A stretch of 31,565 nucleotides of DNA from a virus. A model generated the notes under the pieces. The model had not been told where the DNA came from, did no database searches, and saw nothing but the letters and a program-made list of their open reading frames with translations. Below are positions 6,122 to 22,910 of this stretch, in pieces. The translations under genes and the position numbers were made by a program. Position 1 is the stretch's first letter. Every line of letters begins with the position of its first letter. Where the stretch lies: IMG/VR virus record IMGVR_UViG_3300045988_062277; one strand, 5' to 3'.

Positions 6122-6502
6122 TTACTCGTTGCAAAGGCGCTGCAACAGTTCCTTGTCGCTCATCGGTTTGATTTCATACAGGTACATTGCGCATGCGGAT
6201 GGGTTTTCCATATTCGCTTCAGCCGGGAACCGTTCTTTGAGTTCCTGCACGGTCATGCCGGTCAGCTTAGCGAACATGCTCCACGTCCAAGGGCTGGCCT
6301 CATAGTCGCCGAACGGGGTCGTTTCGAGGATGACGGCGTTGCCGAGATGCGTTCCCGTGAAAGCGTCCGTGAATACGAAGGCCACAGTCTCATATGGCGA
6401 CATGGATTCGCGCACCATGAAGTTTGTTTCCCCGGATTTTATCTTCCGCCATTCCTCACGGCCCACTTTCAGCCGCGTCACAGTGCGGTTATCGCTGGTC
6501 AT
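6122..6502 (-). CDS. Hypothetical protein, possibly ASCH-like
   Basis: Coding is well supported by a GGAAGGAAGG RBS and an overlap with the upstream gene. RLKVGREEWRKIKSGETNFMVRE weakly resembles an ASCH beta-barrel N-terminus. Confidence 0.5.
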   Translation of the reverse strand: MTSDNRTVTRLKVGREEWRKIKSGETNFMVRESMSPYETVAFVFTDAFTGTHLGNAVILETTPFGDYEASPWTWSMFAKLTGMTVQELKERFPAEANMENPSACAMYLYEIKPMSDKELLQRLCNE

Positions 6503-6917
6503 TTTGCCTTCCTTCCTGCATGAACGCCAATGCTATCACAAGATAGGCGATGGCATCCAGATACGAGTCTTCCTTGGTGCGGTCGTGTTTGATGCGTTCG
6601 ATTTTCAGCTCGGCCATCATGATTAGTTCGGCCATCATGATTGCGACTTCCGCGGCAGCGCAGTCGAACCATCGTTTGGAAATGTTCTGGAACATGGTTC
6701 GTGGATTGCTGTATTCTTCGGCTTTCTCACCGGTGAGCATGTTGTTCACATGGATGAGGTTGTCGGCGATGCGCGCGTAGATGTTTGCGTTTTTCACAAC
6801 CGGCGGGTCGATGGGGGTGTCACTGGGTGTTTTCGACCCGTGATTGGCGGCTGGAATCGCCTTGTTGACGCGTTCCATCACGTCATCCCAACTGTTGTTC
6901 TGTCTTGATGATGTCAT
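6489..6917 (-). CDS. Hypothetical protein, possibly a MazG-like / DUF1599-like nucleotide pyrophosphohydrolase
   Basis: Helical protein with ...ELKIERIKHDRTKEDSYLDAIAYLVIALAF, resembling the C-terminal helix pair of all-alpha NTP-PPases. It contains an in-frame 18-bp tandem duplication. Confidence 0.45.
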   Translation of the reverse strand: MTSSRQNNSWDDVMERVNKAIPAANHGSKTPSDTPIDPPVVKNANIYARIADNLIHVNNMLTGEKAEEYSNPRTMFQNISKRWFDCAAAEVAIMMAELIMMAELKIERIKHDRTKEDSYLDAIAYLVIALAFMQEGRQNDQR

Positions 6918-8139
6918 CGAGTGTTTTCCTTCCTTCTATCACGTCCATGACCTTGCGGTTCCATGGCGTGTCCGGTACGAGTATGCGATGCTGCCCCTGA
7001 TAGGGGCTGCCGCGTCGAACCAGTCTTCTGTTGGCCTGCTCCCAATCGGCGTATGTCCATGGAAGGTCGAGCCATATCTGATCTTTGATGAGATGCTGCA
7101 AGCCGTCCACGCCGGTGCCCATTGACTGCGGGTTGGCGACTATGAGCCGGTATCCTTCCCGTTCTTGGTCGGTCATGGCGAGGAATGTCTTCGCGTCCGT
7201 GCATGGCGTCCAAGTCCGGTAGATTTCGTCTCTTACCGCTTTGAACCGCGTCCATACGAGCAGTGGTGTCGGGTCTTCGCGTCTCTTGGCTTCATCGTAG
7301 ACTGCCTTGAGTTTGGATACGCCGAACCAGTAGGATTCTCCACGGTCTTCGGTCTTGTAGGCGAAGCCGTCGTCGAGTTGGGCGAGTTTGACGGCTGCGG
7401 CGCTCGCGCTTGCCGCGTACACGTCTTCGGCGAGCTGGTGGGTGTTCATCCACTGTTCGAGCGCCGCATCCTCCTGTTCGGTTTTCGGCGAGGGGAGCCA
7501 TTCGGTTTGCGGAAGCTGGTTACCGCCACGTCGGATGTCCAACACGAGCTTTTGCAGCTGTCTGCACGCTTCCTCGACCATGGGCTGGGAATACGTGTAT
7601 TTGACCACTGTGCGCCCTTGCACGCTCATCGTGTAGGGTTTACCGTATCGCATCCTGAAAGCCCCTAGAGTACGCCAAGAATCGCCTAATAGGGCCGTCC
7701 TGTCCTTGGCGTGTGGATACATGACAACGGTCTGCCCGTACAGGTCTTCCAAATCCTTCGGAGCGGGCGTGCCGGTCAGCATCAGCACGTCCTTGGCAAG
7801 GTCACTGATGCCTTTCACGACTTTGGAACGTCCGCTCCTAGGATTCTTCACCATGTGGCTTTCATCCACGATGAGACTGAAACCGTCCGGCACTCCGCCA
7901 AGCTTGGCGGCCATGTTGTAGGACACCACGAGGAAACGGTGGTCTTCCGGCCAGCCATGCTTGCGGTAGTCTTCGATGGTCAGAGCCTTGCCGTGAGACC
8001 ATTGGCTGATTTGCGGCAGCCAAGCGGTCTTCACGACGCTTGCCGGACAGATGACGAGGATATGCTCCGCATCATCCAGCAGGTCCATGCTGCGCTTCGT
8101 CTTGCCTGTTCCTGCCTCGTCGAAGATGAAGGCCCTCAC
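6883..8139 (-). CDS. SNF2/DEAD-like superfamily 2 helicase
   Basis: Motif I is FDEAGTGKT, motif II is IVDESH, and there is a C-terminal helicase lobe. A GTG at 8139 with a GAAGGA RBS and a GTGA overlap is preferred over the track ATG at 8169. Confidence 0.8.
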   Translation of the reverse strand: MRAFIFDEAGTGKTKRSMDLLDDAEHILVICPASVVKTAWLPQISQWSHGKALTIEDYRKHGWPEDHRFLVVSYNMAAKLGGVPDGFSLIVDESHMVKNPRSGRSKVVKGISDLAKDVLMLTGTPAPKDLEDLYGQTVVMYPHAKDRTALLGDSWRTLGAFRMRYGKPYTMSVQGRTVVKYTYSQPMVEEACRQLQKLVLDIRRGGNQLPQTEWLPSPKTEQEDAALEQWMNTHQLAEDVYAASASAAAVKLAQLDDGFAYKTEDRGESYWFGVSKLKAVYDEAKRREDPTPLLVWTRFKAVRDEIYRTWTPCTDAKTFLAMTDQEREGYRLIVANPQSMGTGVDGLQHLIKDQIWLDLPWTYADWEQANRRLVRRGSPYQGQHRILVPDTPWNRKVMDVIEGRKTLDDIIKTEQQLG

Positions 8140-8516
8140 TGCGTGTCCTTCCCGTGCTCGGCCTCCCATGCGGCTATGCGCTCGCGTCCTTCAGGCGTCT
8201 GCTTCCATCTGCGCCATGTCGTATAGCTGACGCCATGCTCTTTCATGAACTTCGCCTGCCATTTGCGGCATGCGGCCCCGCATGCCTCACGATGCTGCTG
8301 CCGGTACAGCACCCAATAGGCGAGCATTCTCTCGTGGTTCTCGTTCATCCACTTCTTTTTAAGCTTCCGCTTATGCTCCACTTTCTTAGGTGTCATGTCG
8401 GCATAGCGGGTGACGGTCTTCTTTTTTTTGGCGGGGGGCATTGGCTTCTGTTGGCGCATCTTTTCGATTTCGGCCCGGGCGCCTTCGTCAAGCCAGTCGA
8501 AGATGCTGTCATTCAT
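8136..8516 (-). CDS. Basic hypothetical protein (126 aa)
   Basis: The start MNDSIF has a GAAGGAAA RBS. The track's N-terminal extension is rejected. The protein is Lys/Arg- and Trp-rich, so possibly nucleic-acid binding. Confidence 0.6.
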   Translation of the reverse strand: MNDSIFDWLDEGARAEIEKMRQQKPMPPAKKKKTVTRYADMTPKKVEHKRKLKKKWMNENHERMLAYWVLYRQQHREACGAACRKWQAKFMKEHGVSYTTWRRWKQTPEGRERIAAWEAEHGKDTQ

Positions 8517-11911: not shown

Positions 11912-11936
11912 GTGCCCCTGCGGGACTCGAACCCGC
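11912..11936 (-). other. tRNA 3'-half-like element (T-arm plus acceptor 3' strand), not a complete tRNA
   Basis: The minus strand reads GCGGG-TTCGAGT-CCCGC-AGGGGCA-C. No matching 5' acceptor strand, D-arm or 7-nt anticodon loop lies upstream. Confidence 0.5.
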
Positions 11937-12208
11937 ATGTGTGCCGCTGGGGCCGGATGGTCAGGCGGTCGATCATCCTGAACGTCTCCGCGTCCGTCGC
12001 GGACCATCGCGGTAACGGTCGGCGTGTCGATGTGCACGATGTGGTCGGCGAGCGGCACGAACCGTACCCCTTTGTTGCGGTGATGCTGCCGTTGCGGATG
12101 AGCCTCAGTTCGTACCCGCCATGTTGTCGATGAAAGTCTGCTTGTCCATTTCAGGTTGGTGCTTTCAGCATACCACTTTATATACTGTCGCAATGTCGGC
12201 GCGTCGCG

Positions 12209-12751
12209 TCACAGTTCACTGAGAACGTACACTTTGCGCCATGCCGTCCCAACGCCGTCAATCGGGTTGCCGTCCCTGACGGCCTTGCGTAGCCACGACA
12301 GCGTGACGCCGTGGAACGTGTCGTCGGTCTGGGCGAGGAACTCCTTGACGTGCCTCAACGTGGTGGCGCTCAGGCATCCCATGCCGATTTCCACGGCGTA
12401 TGTCGTGATGTCTTCGTCGGAGTATGTCGGCGTGACCTTGGCGACGACCGTGCCATACGACTTGAGAACAAGCTGCGTGCCGTGTTCGGTGTCCCAGCGT
12501 TCGACGAACGCCTTGCCGTGGAAGGACTGGCGCGAGTCGTACAGCGGCTGCAATTCGAAGGTTCCAAGATAATCACTCATTTCAATCACTCCTTGTGGTT
12601 CGGTTGGTTGGTTTGGTTCAGGCGATGGGCTGGGGCATGCCGCCTCAGGCGTGAGCACGCCCTCGTGATGGTGGTAGAGGTCTCCGGTCGAGGTGAGGAA
12701 GTGGCCCTCCCCGCCTCGGATGTGGCCTTTGCCGCTGAGTCTCTTGTTCAT
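12209..12751 (-). CDS. Immediate-early protein A: a 35-aa paralogous N-module, a Pro-rich linker and a 123-aa C-domain. A strong internal start lies at 12580.
   Basis: MNKRLSGKGHIRGGEGHFLTSTGDLYHHHEGVLTP..., then an in-frame AAGGAG-N8-ATG (MSDYLGTFELQ...). It is driven by promoter P1. Confidence 0.6.
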   Translation of the reverse strand: MNKRLSGKGHIRGGEGHFLTSTGDLYHHHEGVLTPEAACPSPSPEPNQPTEPQGVIEMSDYLGTFELQPLYDSRQSFHGKAFVERWDTEHGTQLVLKSYGTVVAKVTPTYSDEDITTYAVEIGMGCLSATTLRHVKEFLAQTDDTFHGVTLSWLRKAVRDGNPIDGVGTAWRKVYVLSEL

Positions 12752-12778
12752 TTGGTCACTCCTTTGGTTGATGGTTCT

Positions 12779-12820
12779 AATATACCGCACTTGGCGTTGG
12801 CCGTCAAGTGCGGCGTGTCG
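12779..12820 (-). promoter_or_regulatory. Promoter P1 with an overlapping palindromic operator
   Basis: On the minus strand: CGACACGCCG-cac-TTGACG-17nt-TATATT. The palindrome arms are 12785-12793 and 12805-12813 (ccgcacttg/caagtgcgg). Confidence 0.6.
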
Positions 12821-12823
12821 CGT

Positions 12824-12994
12824 TCAGATGGAGGCGGCCCGGACGCCCTCAAGTTCCGCATACGCCTTCGGATGGTTCGTGGTGGTCAGTGGCGTGAGCT
12901 CGCCCTCGTGGTAGGCGTAGACCTCCCCGGCCGTGGTGACGAACACCCCCTCGCCGTTCCTGATGTAGCCCTTGCCGTTCAGTGCCTTGTGCAT
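12824..12994 (-). CDS. Immediate-early protein B (56 aa), a paralog of the N-module of protein A
   Basis: MHKALNGKGYIRNGEGVFVTTAGEVYAYHEGELTP... shares 21 of 35 residues with protein A. It has a GGAGG RBS and is driven by P2. Confidence 0.55.
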   Translation of the reverse strand: MHKALNGKGYIRNGEGVFVTTAGEVYAYHEGELTPLTTTNHPKAYAELEGVRAASI

Positions 12995-13021
12995 TTCCCT
13001 CCTTGTTTGGTTGATGGTTCT

Positions 13022-13062
13022 AGTATACCGAACTTGACACCATGCGTCAAGTCGGCGTGTCG
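13022..13062 (-). promoter_or_regulatory. Promoter P2 with an overlapping palindromic operator
   Basis: On the minus strand: CGACACGCCG-ac-TTGACG-17nt-TATACT. The palindrome arms are 13029-13038 and 13046-13054 (cgaacttgac/gtcaagtcg). The leader is nearly identical to that of P1. Confidence 0.6.
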
Positions 13063-13094
13063 TGAGAACGGTTCTCAATAACAGGAGCGAGCGC

Positions 13095-13192
13095 GAACCC
13101 AGCCAACGCATGAACCCGGTCAATAGACGAACGCCGTTGACATGCGAACACGGTCAATGCGTGAACGCCGTCAACACATGAACGCCGTCAAC
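13095..13192. repeat. Array of six 13-bp iterons at exact 17-bp phasing
   Basis: GAACCCAGCCAAC (13095), GAACCCGGTCAAT (13112), GAACGCCGTTGAC (13129), GAACACGGTCAAT (13146), GAACGCCGTCAAC (13163), GAACGCCGTCAAC (13180). Confidence 0.85.
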
Positions 13193-13899
13193 ACACCAAC
13201 AAAACAAGAACGATCCCCAACAAAAGACAGGGAGAGCCACCACCACACAAGGGGGGGGAGCCCAAAAACGACACGAGCCGAGCCCCACCGCACGCCTTGC
13301 CGATTGCGTCGACGAGTGCGAACGGGTCAGAACACCCTCTAGAAGCCATTCTTTGGGGTCTTAGACGGGCTTTCATGCCGAACCCTAGTACTTTTACCTC
13401 CCAGCACCGAAAGGCCCTCAGAGACGCCTTTTTCGATTCCGACGTGACCTTTGCCGCAGCCATGGCGCGGACGCGTCGCCAGCTGGCCGCCGTCGGCTGG
13501 GTTCGGCCATGGCTTGGCTCGGCCATGGAAGGTCTTCGCGCGACGCTGCGGAGGCCGTTCGGCATCGAAAACCGGTGGATGGCGACCATGTGCGGATGGC
13601 GGCTCGTTTTTGCCTCCGGGACCATATGCGAGGGCCGTTCCTACAGCGTCATTCCAACGTTTTCGAGGTGTCGCGCCACCACTGCGGCCATGTCGGCGGC
13701 GGGTTGGCTTGACGGAAACGGCCAAATGGTGTGTTTGTGTCTTGGTTTTGGCTTGTTTCCAGCGCTGAGCCTGTGGATAACTCAAGTCAGTGGCAACAAA
13801 TTCTGTGATGGAATTGTGAACAAAACTTCAGATTCAGCGAAGACCACACAAAGTTCGGCACCCTCGACACGCCGTGTTTTGTCATACCCCATGGTGTAT

Positions 13900-14047
13900 C
13901 ACGCGCGCGCACGAGAATGACCCTCCCAAACCCCAATAGATGTAGTGTGTAGGTGTAGGTATATATGGTATGTTGTTGTTGTTGTTGTTGGTCTATATAG
14001 ATATAAGCGCGTGACGTGCGCGCGCGCGCGCGCGTATACACCCCCCC
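13900..14047. repeat. Low-complexity block: alternating purine-pyrimidine GC tracts flanking an AT-rich segment with a (TGT)6 microsatellite and a C7 run
   Basis: cacgcgcgcgcacg at 13900-13913; (TGT)6 at 13971-13990; a 28-nt alternating Pu-Py tract at 14014-14041 with a (GC)8 core; C7 at 14041-14047; A9 at 14074-14082. Confidence 0.85.
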
Positions 14048-14166
14048 GAGCATGGTTGTCAAGTCGTGTTCACATAAAAAGGCAAAAAAAAACCCTAGAA
14101 CACCCGGCTACGTTTTCCTACATCCTACGTTCCGTGCGGAAACCAACGATTTCCGACGCGCCGTAG

Positions 14167-14195
14167 TTGAAAACTCATAGCGGGTGTGCTAGGGT
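14167..14195 (+). promoter_or_regulatory. Candidate promoter of the replicase gene
   Basis: TTGAAA, a 17-nt spacer, then TAGGGT. A GGAG RBS lies at 14225-14228 before the ATG at 14235. Confidence 0.35.
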
Positions 14196-14234
14196 TGAAC
14201 TTGTCGAAAAACAACCTTACCACAGGAGAAACCC

Positions 14235-19553: not shown

Positions 19554-19619
19554 CCCCAACCATCAGCAACACCAACCGCCATGAAAACCCGACGCGCCGC
19601 ACCACGGTGAAAACCGAAA

Positions 19620-19628
19620 TGGTATGAT
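19620..19628 (+). promoter_or_regulatory. Extended -10 promoter (TGGTATGAT) before the packaging genes
   Basis: It lies in a 124-bp gap and is followed by a strong AAGGAGG RBS at 19667-19673. Confidence 0.4.
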
Positions 19629-19677: not shown

Positions 19678-19989
19678 ATGGCAGGGAAAACTGAAGAAGC
19701 CCTCTCAAGCCGCATGGAACAGGTCAACAGACTTATCGACAAAGCATACTCGGACATGGAAGAGTACGCCAAAAAGGCCGAAACGTCGGACGATGACCGC
19801 GAATACAACATGAGCATGGCCGCCAACGCGCAACGAAACTACGTCAGCTTCATGCAACTGCTCATGACCATGACAAAAAACTTCGACGAAGCGGTGAAAG
19901 TCGATTCGCACAAAAGCAGGACCACCGCCACCAAAGCACCGAAAACCACTCTTCAGAAACTCGTAGCGAAGGAAGCGAAACGCTCATGA
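19678..19989 (+). CDS. Helical 103-aa protein, a candidate small terminase by position only
   Basis: Strong RBS, ATGA overlap with the next gene, and a basic C-terminus. Confidence 0.5.
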   Translation: MAGKTEEALSSRMEQVNRLIDKAYSDMEEYAKKAETSDDDREYNMSMAANAQRNYVSFMQLLMTMTKNFDEAVKVDSHKSRTTATKAPKTTLQKLVAKEAKRS

Positions 19990-22302: not shown

Positions 22303-22586
22303 TGGGCAAGGATACGGGACTCTACCATCGCAACCGCACCATCCTCCGCGAGCGCACCAAACGCACTGGAGCGCCATGCTATTATTGCGGTGCGCCGTTC
22401 TATTGGGGCCGCAACACGGCACATCCGCTATCGTTTACGGCTGACCATGTGATACCGCGTGCGGCTGGCGGAAGCGACAGGATGGACAATCTCGTCCCGG
22501 CCCATATGCAGTGCAATCGAGCCAAATCAGACCACATAGCAAATCCGGCGACACGCCGGACGCGAACCGCGACGAGAAGGTGGTAG
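22302..22586 (+). CDS. HNH endonuclease
   Basis: CYYCG...ADHVIPRAAGG...DNLVPAHMQCNRAK is the canonical HNH pattern. It has an ATGA-type overlap with terL. Confidence 0.85.
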   Translation: MGKDTGLYHRNRTILRERTKRTGAPCYYCGAPFYWGRNTAHPLSFTADHVIPRAAGGSDRMDNLVPAHMQCNRAKSDHIANPATRRTRTATRRW

Positions 22587-22644
22587 AATAAATACCGTTA
22601 CGCAACAATGCGTGACTCCTCTCTTGTGATTCTGGTTAGCACAG

Positions 22645-22681
22645 CACCCCGTTTGACGAAAGTCAAGCGGGGTGTTATGCT
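22645..22681 (+). promoter_or_regulatory. A 13-bp GAAA-loop hairpin merged with a promoter (TTGACG-17nt-TATGCT) upstream of the capsid gene
   Basis: caccccgtttgac-gaaa-gtcaagcggggtg. The -35 at 22653-22658 lies inside the left arm and the -10 is at 22676-22681. Confidence 0.5.
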
Positions 22682-22910
22682 ATGTCTAGGAGATGGTCGG
22701 CAGACAATCGGAGCTTCGTCCGCCACGCCCATCGACCAACTCCCCAAAACGTACCGACTTGAACAGTCCAGCACAGTCGTTAAACAATGCAGGACACTAC
22801 CAACGGGCAACCGTGGGGTCGAGGCGCACACAGCCGGAAACAATCGTGGTAGAGGTCGAGTCGGGGCCGCAATGCAGAATGCCGACATCATTCACCACGA
22901 AAGGCAGCCC

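Follow-up and report, generated by a model that had tools for sequence, protein, structure and literature searches.

Cassettes A and B and the promoter-leader unit

The DNA analysed here, virus record IMGVR_UViG_3300045988_062277 of IMG/VR, is a near-complete siphovirus genome of 31,565 bp with 57.7% G+C, referred to below as the window. This study concerns two neighbouring cassettes of promoter, leader and small gene, B (13062-12824) and A (12820-12209), with which the leftward early arm of the window opens on the minus strand. The relatives of the window are lytic Bifidobacterium phages isolated from sewage (BA746P1, BP742P1 and BP677P1-8), with approximately 83% identity in patches. All 46 genes per isolated relative are labelled 'hypothetical' in their records. 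The genome is organised in two divergent arms, parted by a 1.2-kb non-coding stretch (12995-14234). Past the cassettes, the early arm encodes Erf, a single-stranded DNA-binding (SSB)-like protein, VRR-NUC, a RecE-like exonuclease, an SNF2 helicase and a dCTP deaminase. In the rightward arm, a primase/helicase gene (14235) comes first and the structural genes follow. Searches of the window with Rfam and ARAGORN gave zero hits.

Both cassettes had the same architecture: a 10-mer box, a TTGACG -35 hexamer, a 17-nt spacer, a TATAYT -10 hexamer, a leader, a Shine-Dalgarno (SD) sequence and an open reading frame (ORF) of related sequence (Table 1). Each of these features had been described in a first-pass annotation, made by a model from the letters alone, and each was found in place. 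In a consensus scan of 3.6 kb, the promoters P_B and P_A were the only two promoter-like sites (shuffled sequences gave 1.0 ± 1.2), and with their near-consensus hexamers they are predicted to be strong sigma-A-type early promoters, as the annotation had placed them at the start of the early arm. The cassettes formed a direct repeat of 162 nt with 73% identity. Identity was 54/70 (77%) over promoter and leader, 16/16 over the leader and 77/105 (73%) over the coding parts, which bears out the earlier remark that the leaders are better conserved than the genes. The count of 21 shared residues out of 35 in the N-terminal peptide modules of A and B was also correct, as were the description of B as a stand-alone protein of 56 amino acids (aa) and that of A as continuing into a 123-aa domain with an internal AAGGAG-ATG of its own.

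The two cassettes are copies of a generic early-promoter unit of approximately 70 bp, which this large family of Bifidobacterium siphophages places before many of its small early genes, with one ahead of each of the opening few genes in the leftward early arm. The unit begins 1-3 nt past the upstream stop codon with the box CGACACGCCG, followed after 2-3 nt by TTGACR, a spacer of 17 nt and TATAYT. Often there is also a dyad over this region. The unit closes with a CA-rich, unstructured leader (ATCAACCAA) that runs into a strong SD and the start codon. We collected 116 distinct instances of the unit from 46 IMG/VR loci and three isolates. At least five unrelated families were encoded behind them: the B-type module, the A-type module, DUF8033, gene 3 and a divergently transcribed gene. 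BA746P1 carried the unit before three consecutive genes, namely a 54-aa module gene, a separate 124-aa homologue of the C-terminal domain of A, and the 73-aa gene 3. When units were identified by their -35, -10 and leader alone, 74 of the 80 found had a perfect box CGACACGCCG and five had a box with one mismatch. The window also has a third, decayed copy (Table 1), which the first-pass annotation had overlooked, as it had the further boxes on the plus strand.

The modules of the two cassettes belonged to different lineages. B-type modules (MHK...) never occurred fused: each was a protein of its own, 54-62 aa long, whose tail was conserved. A-type modules (MNK...) formed a separate lineage. Mean module identity was 75% among A-type and 84% among B-type sequences, and 58% between the types. 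A and B of the window were 60% identical to each other, against 77% and 84%, respectively, to their own types. Sequence comparison thus indicates that A and B are old paralogues, because each resembles its own type from other phages more than it resembles the other. On the same grounds, the 60% identity and the closer kin elsewhere, a recent tandem duplication of A and B was ruled out. The first-pass annotation had viewed the locus as one promoter-operator-gene cassette duplicated in tandem, a view that does not hold for a unit with 116 instances before at least five families and for genes that are old paralogues.

Table 1. Positions of the cassettes, their parts and the further box-bearing sites of the window (SD, Shine-Dalgarno sequence)
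Feature	Position	Strand	Remarks
P_B WhiA-type box CGACACGCCG	13062-13053	minus	exact 10-mer; first early promoter
P_B core promoter: TTGACG 13050-13045, 17-nt spacer, TATACT 13027-13022	13050-13022	minus	10/12 consensus matches
P_B dyad CCGACTTGAC / GTCAAGTTCGG	13028-13056	minus	over -35 and spacer; -17.5 kcal/mol, z -3.67
Gene B CA-rich leader AGAACCATCAACCAAA (13021-13006) and SD AAGGAGG	12995-13021	minus	leader shared by most of the clade's cassettes
Gene B, stand-alone B-type module protein, 56 aa	12994 (ATG) to 12824 (stop)	minus	112 homologous clusters
P_A WhiA-type box CGACACGCCG	12820-12811	minus	3 nt past the gene B stop codon
P_A core promoter: TTGACG 12807-12802, 17-nt spacer, TATATT 12784-12779	12807-12779	minus	10/12 consensus matches
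P_A dyad CCGCACTTGaCG / CGcCAAGTGCGG	12785-12813	minus	12-nt arms, 92% complementary; -20 kcal/mol, z -3.61
Gene A leader AGAACCATCAACCAAA (12778-12763) and SD GGAG	12752-12778	minus	chimeric: DUF8033-type leader/SD on A-type ORF
Gene A, 180 aa	12751 (ATG) to 12209 (stop)	minus	ORF
A-type module, residues 1-37 of protein A	12641-12751	minus	
Disordered linker, residues 38-57 of protein A	12581-12640	minus	pLDDT <50; holds internal SD AAGGAG 12594-12589
DUF8033 (PF26096) domain, 123 aa, own ATG 12580, stop 12209	12209-12580	minus	
Third cassette, decayed: box variant CGACGCGCCG (GACGC), TTGCGA, 15-nt spacer, TATGCT, SD deleted	12206-12147	minus	seen when aligned with L003 and L007
Pseudogene of the 73-aa gene 3 family	11945-12149	minus	out-of-frame deletions of 7, 10, 8 and 8 nt; intact in relatives
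Box variant CGACGCGCCG, TAG, TTGAAA, 17 nt, TAGGGT	14154-14195	plus	upstream of the primase gene (ATG 14235)
Box variant before TGGTATGAT	19590-19628	plus	precedes the gene at 19678
Perfect box, 25 nt, TGGTAGAAT (extended -10, no -35)	22549-22589	plus	kept in three isolated relatives

The dyad

The dyad is not an independent sequence. Its left arm consists of the end of the box and the -35 hexamer (CCG(C)ACTTGAC), and its right arm, GTCAAGT(N)CGG, touches the -10. Both dyads of the window were strong when folded as hairpins (-20 kcal/mol at P_A and -17.5 kcal/mol at P_B, z approximately -3.6), so the palindrome that the earlier annotation had seen overlapping the promoter is real at both sites. 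As a defining element of the cassette it failed: significant dyads (z < -2) were found at 53% of the A-module promoters, 41% of the B-module promoters, 33% of the DUF8033 promoters and 6% of the gene 3 promoters. Since it was significant in just part of each promoter class, the dyad is facultative. A universal dyad was rejected, many units having no significant hairpin.

The dyad could act as an operator or, by analogy with the promoter(early) stem-loop (PeSL) cassettes of T4-type myoviruses, as an attenuating hairpin. One alternative commits itself to the hairpin: an RNA or DNA structure at which transcription arriving from the upstream unit would end or be attenuated, so that each small gene becomes an insulated mini-operon, with no protein operator involved. 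We consider this plausible, although we lean somewhat against it. Directly past the upstream stop codon comes the hairpin, GC-rich and stable at P_A, with UAUAUU after it. A 'CAC' linker pairs fully with GTGCGG, and 'AC' linkers give a one-base bulge. PeSL stem-loops at the same position have been shown to terminate transcription (PMC2839356, PMC4122927). However, P_B carries a dyad in spite of having no gene before it, the U-tract is a poor one, neither site was called by a terminator scan, and units free of a hairpin are numerous.

Module proteins, DUF8033 and proposed gene shuffling

The C-terminal domain of protein A is a DUF8033 domain. All its homologues carried the precomputed PF26096 label, and the domain matched phrog_4264, a PHROGs family of unknown function (E 1.6e-17), and a DUF8033 protein in BFVD (E 8.6e-17, TM 0.94). 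A Foldseek search of the DUF8033 model against the PDB gave nothing significant; the GNAT-like hits (E >= 0.11, TM ~0.2-0.26) were below what would be evidence of membership. A literature search for DUF8033/PF26096 found no publication.

Proteins in which the A-type module is fused to DUF8033 (166-189 aa) made up 108 of the best 120 homologue clusters and spanned 59-98% identity. With the fusion present in more than 100 clusters, an assembly or frameshift artefact was ruled out. The linker between the two parts had 17 lengths, of 9-31 residues, across the homologues, and a 3-nt indel in it preserved the frame. The internal methionine was retained in 108 of the 109 fused homologues, and the sequence (Q/K)GVIEM, which is encoded by the SD-ATG at the end of the linker, was nearly invariant. 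The linker itself reads as a translated remnant of the CA-rich leader (CCAAACCAACCAACC...AAGGAGTGATTGAAATG). The first-pass annotation had rightly noted a Pro-rich linker, which is predicted to be disordered, and had overlooked this probable origin. Its proposal of two isoforms of A remains plausible, given the frequency of the fusion and the retention of the internal start.

At the DNA level, seven of the 15 A-type loci were fused in frame. L003/L008 differed from the fused form by 1 nt and ended at a TGA inside the SD, and L016, L019 and L030 had true stop codons. Fusion and fission are therefore recurrent, internal initiation is probably universal, and the long isoform of A may be dispensable. 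These loci would suit the view that the fusion is a functionless read-through caused by loss of a stop codon, in which only the free module and the internally started DUF8033 matter. That view also draws on the other two frames, both of which stop within the SD region, so that the module and DUF8033 genes would be coupled in any frame. We consider it rather unlikely, since an accident of this kind is difficult to reconcile with more than 100 fused clusters across so wide a range of identity, and with 17 linker lengths that are all in frame, including one changed by a frame-preserving indel.

The gene content behind the units varied among the relatives. Some had only B, some only A and some both, and others (L006/L014) had two stand-alone modules together with a separately promoted DUF8033 gene; BP742P1 was without DUF8033. 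P_A of the window is a chimera. Its spacer is orthologous to that of the promoter of the DUF8033 gene in relatives, and both spacer and SD are of the DUF8033-promoter type, joined to an ORF of the A type; the putative breakpoint therefore lies in the leader or SD.

In these respects the PeSL cassettes of T4-type myoviruses are the closest analogues of the units (PMC2839356, PMC4122927). They too start at the upstream stop codon and combine a strong early promoter of the host type with an SD and ATG. A stem-loop lies between or overlaps the hexamers, approximately 70-100 bp are conserved, small ORFans lie alongside, and the gene content varies among close relatives. The units described here differ in belonging to a siphovirus of an actinobacterium, in having a GC-rich WhiA-type box in place of the AT-rich upstream region, and in a stem-loop that is facultative (6-53% per class).

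The module was conserved in related phages, as the 112 homologous clusters attest, and its copy number varied among them, which the first-pass annotation had proposed to survey. The family is small: in a set of 1.84 billion proteins it has 27 representatives at the 50% identity level. AlphaFold predicted a four-stranded beta-meander with a C-terminal helix for B (pLDDT 83.5), and for protein A a four-stranded beta-module (pLDDT ~60-73), a disordered linker (<50) and an alpha/beta domain (>90). Searches of Pfam, NCBIfam and PDB sequences found nothing for the module or for protein A; the Pfam set searched was one without the PF26096 model. An exhaustive hidden Markov model search with the module profile returned no informative remote relatives, the matches beyond phages being just weak ones to RCC1/Kelch-type hairpin repeats (E 1e-4 to 1e-6, over several stretches). 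The structural matches from Foldseek were single propeller blades (BamB, Ph1500), weak (E >= 0.33) and below evidence of membership. The module is thus predicted to be an orphan four-stranded beta-meander that resembles one blade of a propeller. The proteins presumably function in early host takeover.

The first-pass annotation had suggested an autoregulated immediate-early switch or a host-takeover function in a phage with no recognisable CI/Cro pair. In such a switch, A and/or B would bind the palindromes over their own -35 and spacer and so stand in for the CI/Cro pair. Strong dyads do cover the -35 and spacer at both window promoters, dyads are commonest at the module promoters, and Pfam recognised no CI/Cro-like, helix-turn-helix (HTH) or other DNA-binding protein among the early ORFs scanned, a scan that left the structural and lysis ORFs outside. 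Even so, autoregulation by the module is unlikely, because there was no sign of DNA binding by it: family, profile and structure searches gave neither an HTH nor homology to DNA-binding proteins for the products encoded beside the dyads, and these lack a positive charge. All parts of A and B are neutral to acidic (module pI 6.2 and 7.0), and the all-beta, blade-like module has only propeller-type repeats as remote relatives. The dyads are facultative, occur also at the promoters of DUF8033 and of the divergent gene, and have as their left arm merely the end of the box and the -35; the unit also drives unrelated genes of these phages. We therefore regard the switch as very improbable.

The box and the host WhiA motif

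A full-text literature search with the box 10-mer led to WhiA. The box CGACACGCCG is a 10/10 match to the published Mycobacterium tuberculosis WhiA motif CGACACGCCGn (core GACACGCC). In a 2026 study of M. tuberculosis WhiA and WhiB2, GACACGCC was obtained from WhiA chromatin immunoprecipitation sequencing (ChIP-seq), in-vitro IDAP-seq and WhiB2 ChIP-seq (PMC13473873); earlier ChIP-seq had given CGACACGCCGn as the WhiA motif, and that of Streptomyces WhiA is GACAC. In the solved complex, the segment contacted by WhiB is just upstream of the -35, the C-terminal domain (CTD) of WhiA reads GACAC further upstream, and an alpha-CTD lies beyond. In the phage units GACAC is separated from the TTGACR of the -35 by GCCG plus 2-3 nt, or 6-7 bp, a position consistent with that complex. 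According to the literature, every surveyed actinobacterium except one has WhiA, and the Bifidobacteriales possess WhiB2 and WblE. A WhiB-like (Wbl) gene was not found in the window.

The motif was enriched in the window, where the 10-mer with one mismatch occurred 20 times (7.2 ± 2.7 expected) and the 8-mer ten times (2.4 ± 1.6 expected). Additional intragenic copies of GACACGCC in the window had no promoter context. On the plus strand, three box-bearing promoters (Table 1), one before the primase gene and two before genes of the structural arm, were intergenic, pointed in the same direction as the genes and were conserved in the isolates. In the one at 22549, which has no -35, the distance from box to -10 equals that in the early units.

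Boxes were also found at host promoters. In the scan of viral contigs, a dozen contigs had a box-promoter unit approximately 45 nt upstream of a tRNA-Met gene, and these proved to be pieces of Bifidobacterium chromosome with metA, tRNA-Met and a prophage. They belong to B. longum, B. catenulatum and the B. pseudocatenulatum/adolescentis group (L198, L236 and L193). The spacers of these three tRNA-Met promoters have fully diverged, yet box, 2-3 nt linker and TTGAC(A/T) are all retained. A scan of a genome collection for the box plus TTGAC gave, among the matches listed, scattered chance matches, except for an rRNA promoter: in a Microbacterium rRNA operon (L147) a box-promoter lies approximately 290 nt upstream of the 16S gene.

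Two viral contigs of 40-43 kb that are unrelated to the clade carried duplicated units as well, L222 (43 kb) at 6479-6530 and 7160-7211, and L179 on the minus strand (reverse-complement position 305). Here the box was followed by (C/T)AC, TTGACT, 17 nt and TATAGT, with a dyad of their own (CACTTGACTATAGTCAAGGGTG), before small genes. The box-promoter design therefore reaches beyond one phage clade.

Given the identity of the motif and its use at host tRNA and rRNA promoters, the box is most likely a site for the host's WhiA/WhiB2. A reading of CGACACGCCG as a phage operator specific to the cassettes is at odds with a sequence that equals the published WhiA consensus and occurs at host promoters. 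The exact box 2-3 nt before the -35 at tRNA-Met promoters of three species and at the Microbacterium rRNA promoter further suggests that WhiA/WhiB2 may act at actinobacterial stable-RNA promoters.

A phage-encoded factor might bind the box instead and, like p4 of phi29, repress early promoters with a good -35 and activate late ones without. It would account for boxes both at consensus early promoters and at plus-strand promoters that have no -35. We consider such a factor improbable, as the box is identical to the WhiA motif and stands at host tRNA and rRNA promoters and in the unrelated contigs L179 and L222, and no DNA-binding protein was recognised among the phage ORFs scanned.

Our preferred account of the units, which we consider likely, is as follows. 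Host WhiA would read the box and WhiB2 would sit on region 4 of sigma-A, so that host RNA polymerase would be recruited via activators of growth and division; the host's own tRNA-Met promoter would work likewise. The dyad, when transcribed from the upstream unit, might form an attenuator or insulator hairpin, or alternatively serve as an operator. As near-identical sequences, the units would be substrates for homologous recombination, by which the small genes they flank could be shuffled, duplicated, deleted or fused, as by PeSLs. Gene A, the old paralogue of B, lies behind a promoter which in relatives serves the DUF8033 gene. It is joined in frame to DUF8033 via the translated leader remnant, and the kept internal SD-ATG should also yield free DUF8033.

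Several points weigh against this account. WhiA specificity in Bifidobacterium is taken from motif identity and from the conservation of WhiA across actinobacteria, and the host support comes from a single tRNA locus, seen in three species, and a single rRNA operon. Promoters with a consensus -35 and -10 should work without an activator. Three boxes in the window have GACGC instead of GACAC, and at the 19590-type site the distance from box to -10 is 23 nt in the window and 18 nt in relatives. The dyad, lacking in many units, is inessential to the unit, recombination at the units is inferred from patterns, and with seven of 15 A-type loci fused the fusion protein may not be needed.

A wider claim would be that in this clade of lytic phages and at least one other group (L179, L222) essentially all promoters are tied to the host's WhiA/WhiB2, including the early promoters, the primase promoter and the structural promoters without a -35. 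This we put forward tentatively, as having somewhat less than an even chance of being right.

Among known systems, the sigma-A promoters of the WhiA/WhiB2 regulon (S. venezuelae sepX; the M. tuberculosis regulon) are similar in having GACAC, GACACGCC or CGACACGCCGn directly upstream of the -35, and both factors exist in the host clade; the phage box promoters without a -35 would fit dependence on an activator. The phage copies differ in being tandem and mostly endowed with consensus hexamers, and WhiA binding to them is predicted. The known targets of WhiA/WhiB2 are genes for cell division, replication and ribosomal proteins, not phage genes, and our literature search found no published report of WhiA boxes in phage promoters. 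The stoperators of Cluster A mycobacteriophages (the L5 gp71 sites) are asymmetric motifs of 10-13 bp in short intergenic regions, co-oriented with transcription, which bind the repressor of a temperate phage. In contrast, the present box matches the motif of a host factor, is found at host promoters and keeps a fixed distance from the -35. The start-associated sequences (SAS) of Cluster K mycobacteriophages are likewise short, conserved and repeated before many actinophage genes, and include the ribosome-binding region; they are reportedly translation-start elements without an attached promoter or box, unlike the present unit, which is a full promoter and leader. The known phage link to the WhiB2/WhiA pathway is the WhiB protein of mycobacteriophage TM4, which is reported to inhibit host WhiB2 (cited in PMC6282962) and shows that actinophages do interact with this pathway. 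TM4 encodes a Wbl protein that interferes with WhiB2, whereas the link in the window consists of cis-acting sites that seem to recruit it.

Some further elements were observed around these promoters. Just upstream of cassette B lies an iteron-like array (13093-13211) with at least six copies at a 17-nt period (GTTGACGGCGTTCAnnn), which really consists of GTTNAC-type hexamers, one each 8-9 nt. Relatives had arrays of the same design with another sequence (GTTAACYGTGTTCA in BA746P1), and many metagenomic contigs break at the array, which may be an origin or a protein-binding array. A perfect palindrome, TGAGAAC-G-GTTCTCA (13063-13077), abuts the box of P_B and is unique in the window. It is kept in BA746P1 and BP742P1, where extra copies lie beside the array, and its half-site resembles the iteron GTTCA; the palindrome is a better operator candidate than the box. 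A further iteron-like sequence, ATTGACGGCGTTG (12250-12260), within the 3' end of gene A and approximately 50 nt upstream of the third box, may be due to chance.

With the third cassette and gene 3 decaying in the window, and a stop at codon 4 of gene 3 in a relative (L004), gene 3 appears dispensable. After gene 3, in all relatives, there is a tRNA-like T-arm hairpin GCGGGTTCGAGTCCCGC followed by AGGGGCACGA (11920-11936, minus strand in the window). ARAGORN found no tRNA there, and the hairpin could be an attP-like 3' fragment of a tRNA, a processing site or a terminator.

On the plus strand, a perfect box followed by degenerate promoter remnants was seen in the non-coding region at 13865-13900. 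At the equivalent place, BP677P8 and several contigs have an intact rightward cassette that drives a gene of approximately 104 aa (MQIEIKSKDVA...), which is absent from the window. Around and downstream of the 22549 promoter, a gap of approximately 600 nt (22303-22910) has no convincing gene. Its sequence is kept in BA746P1 (7577-8194) and other isolates. Rfam gave no match, and the stretch could serve as a long leader or encode a non-coding RNA.

Bifidobacterium phages are barely characterised. If the box is a WhiA site, a virus would here be borrowing a conserved activator pair that is essential in M. tuberculosis and developmental in Streptomyces, and these would be the first phage promoters known to be built on WhiA boxes. 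If promoters throughout the clade depend on this pair, whose activity requires an Fe-S cluster and which controls division and replication in actinobacteria, phage development would be gated by the growth and redox state of the host. The box at host tRNA-Met and rRNA promoters would mean that WhiA/WhiB2 also drive stable-RNA synthesis. With the units, the PeSL idea that promoter cassettes serve as recombination linkers would reach beyond T4-type myoviruses to siphoviruses of actinobacteria. At 70 bp, they may offer compact, strong, modular and portable promoter-leader parts for the engineering of Bifidobacterium. That a one-blade mini-protein and DUF8033 have repeatedly been fused and split, with the internal start kept, points to a functional link between these two orphan families.

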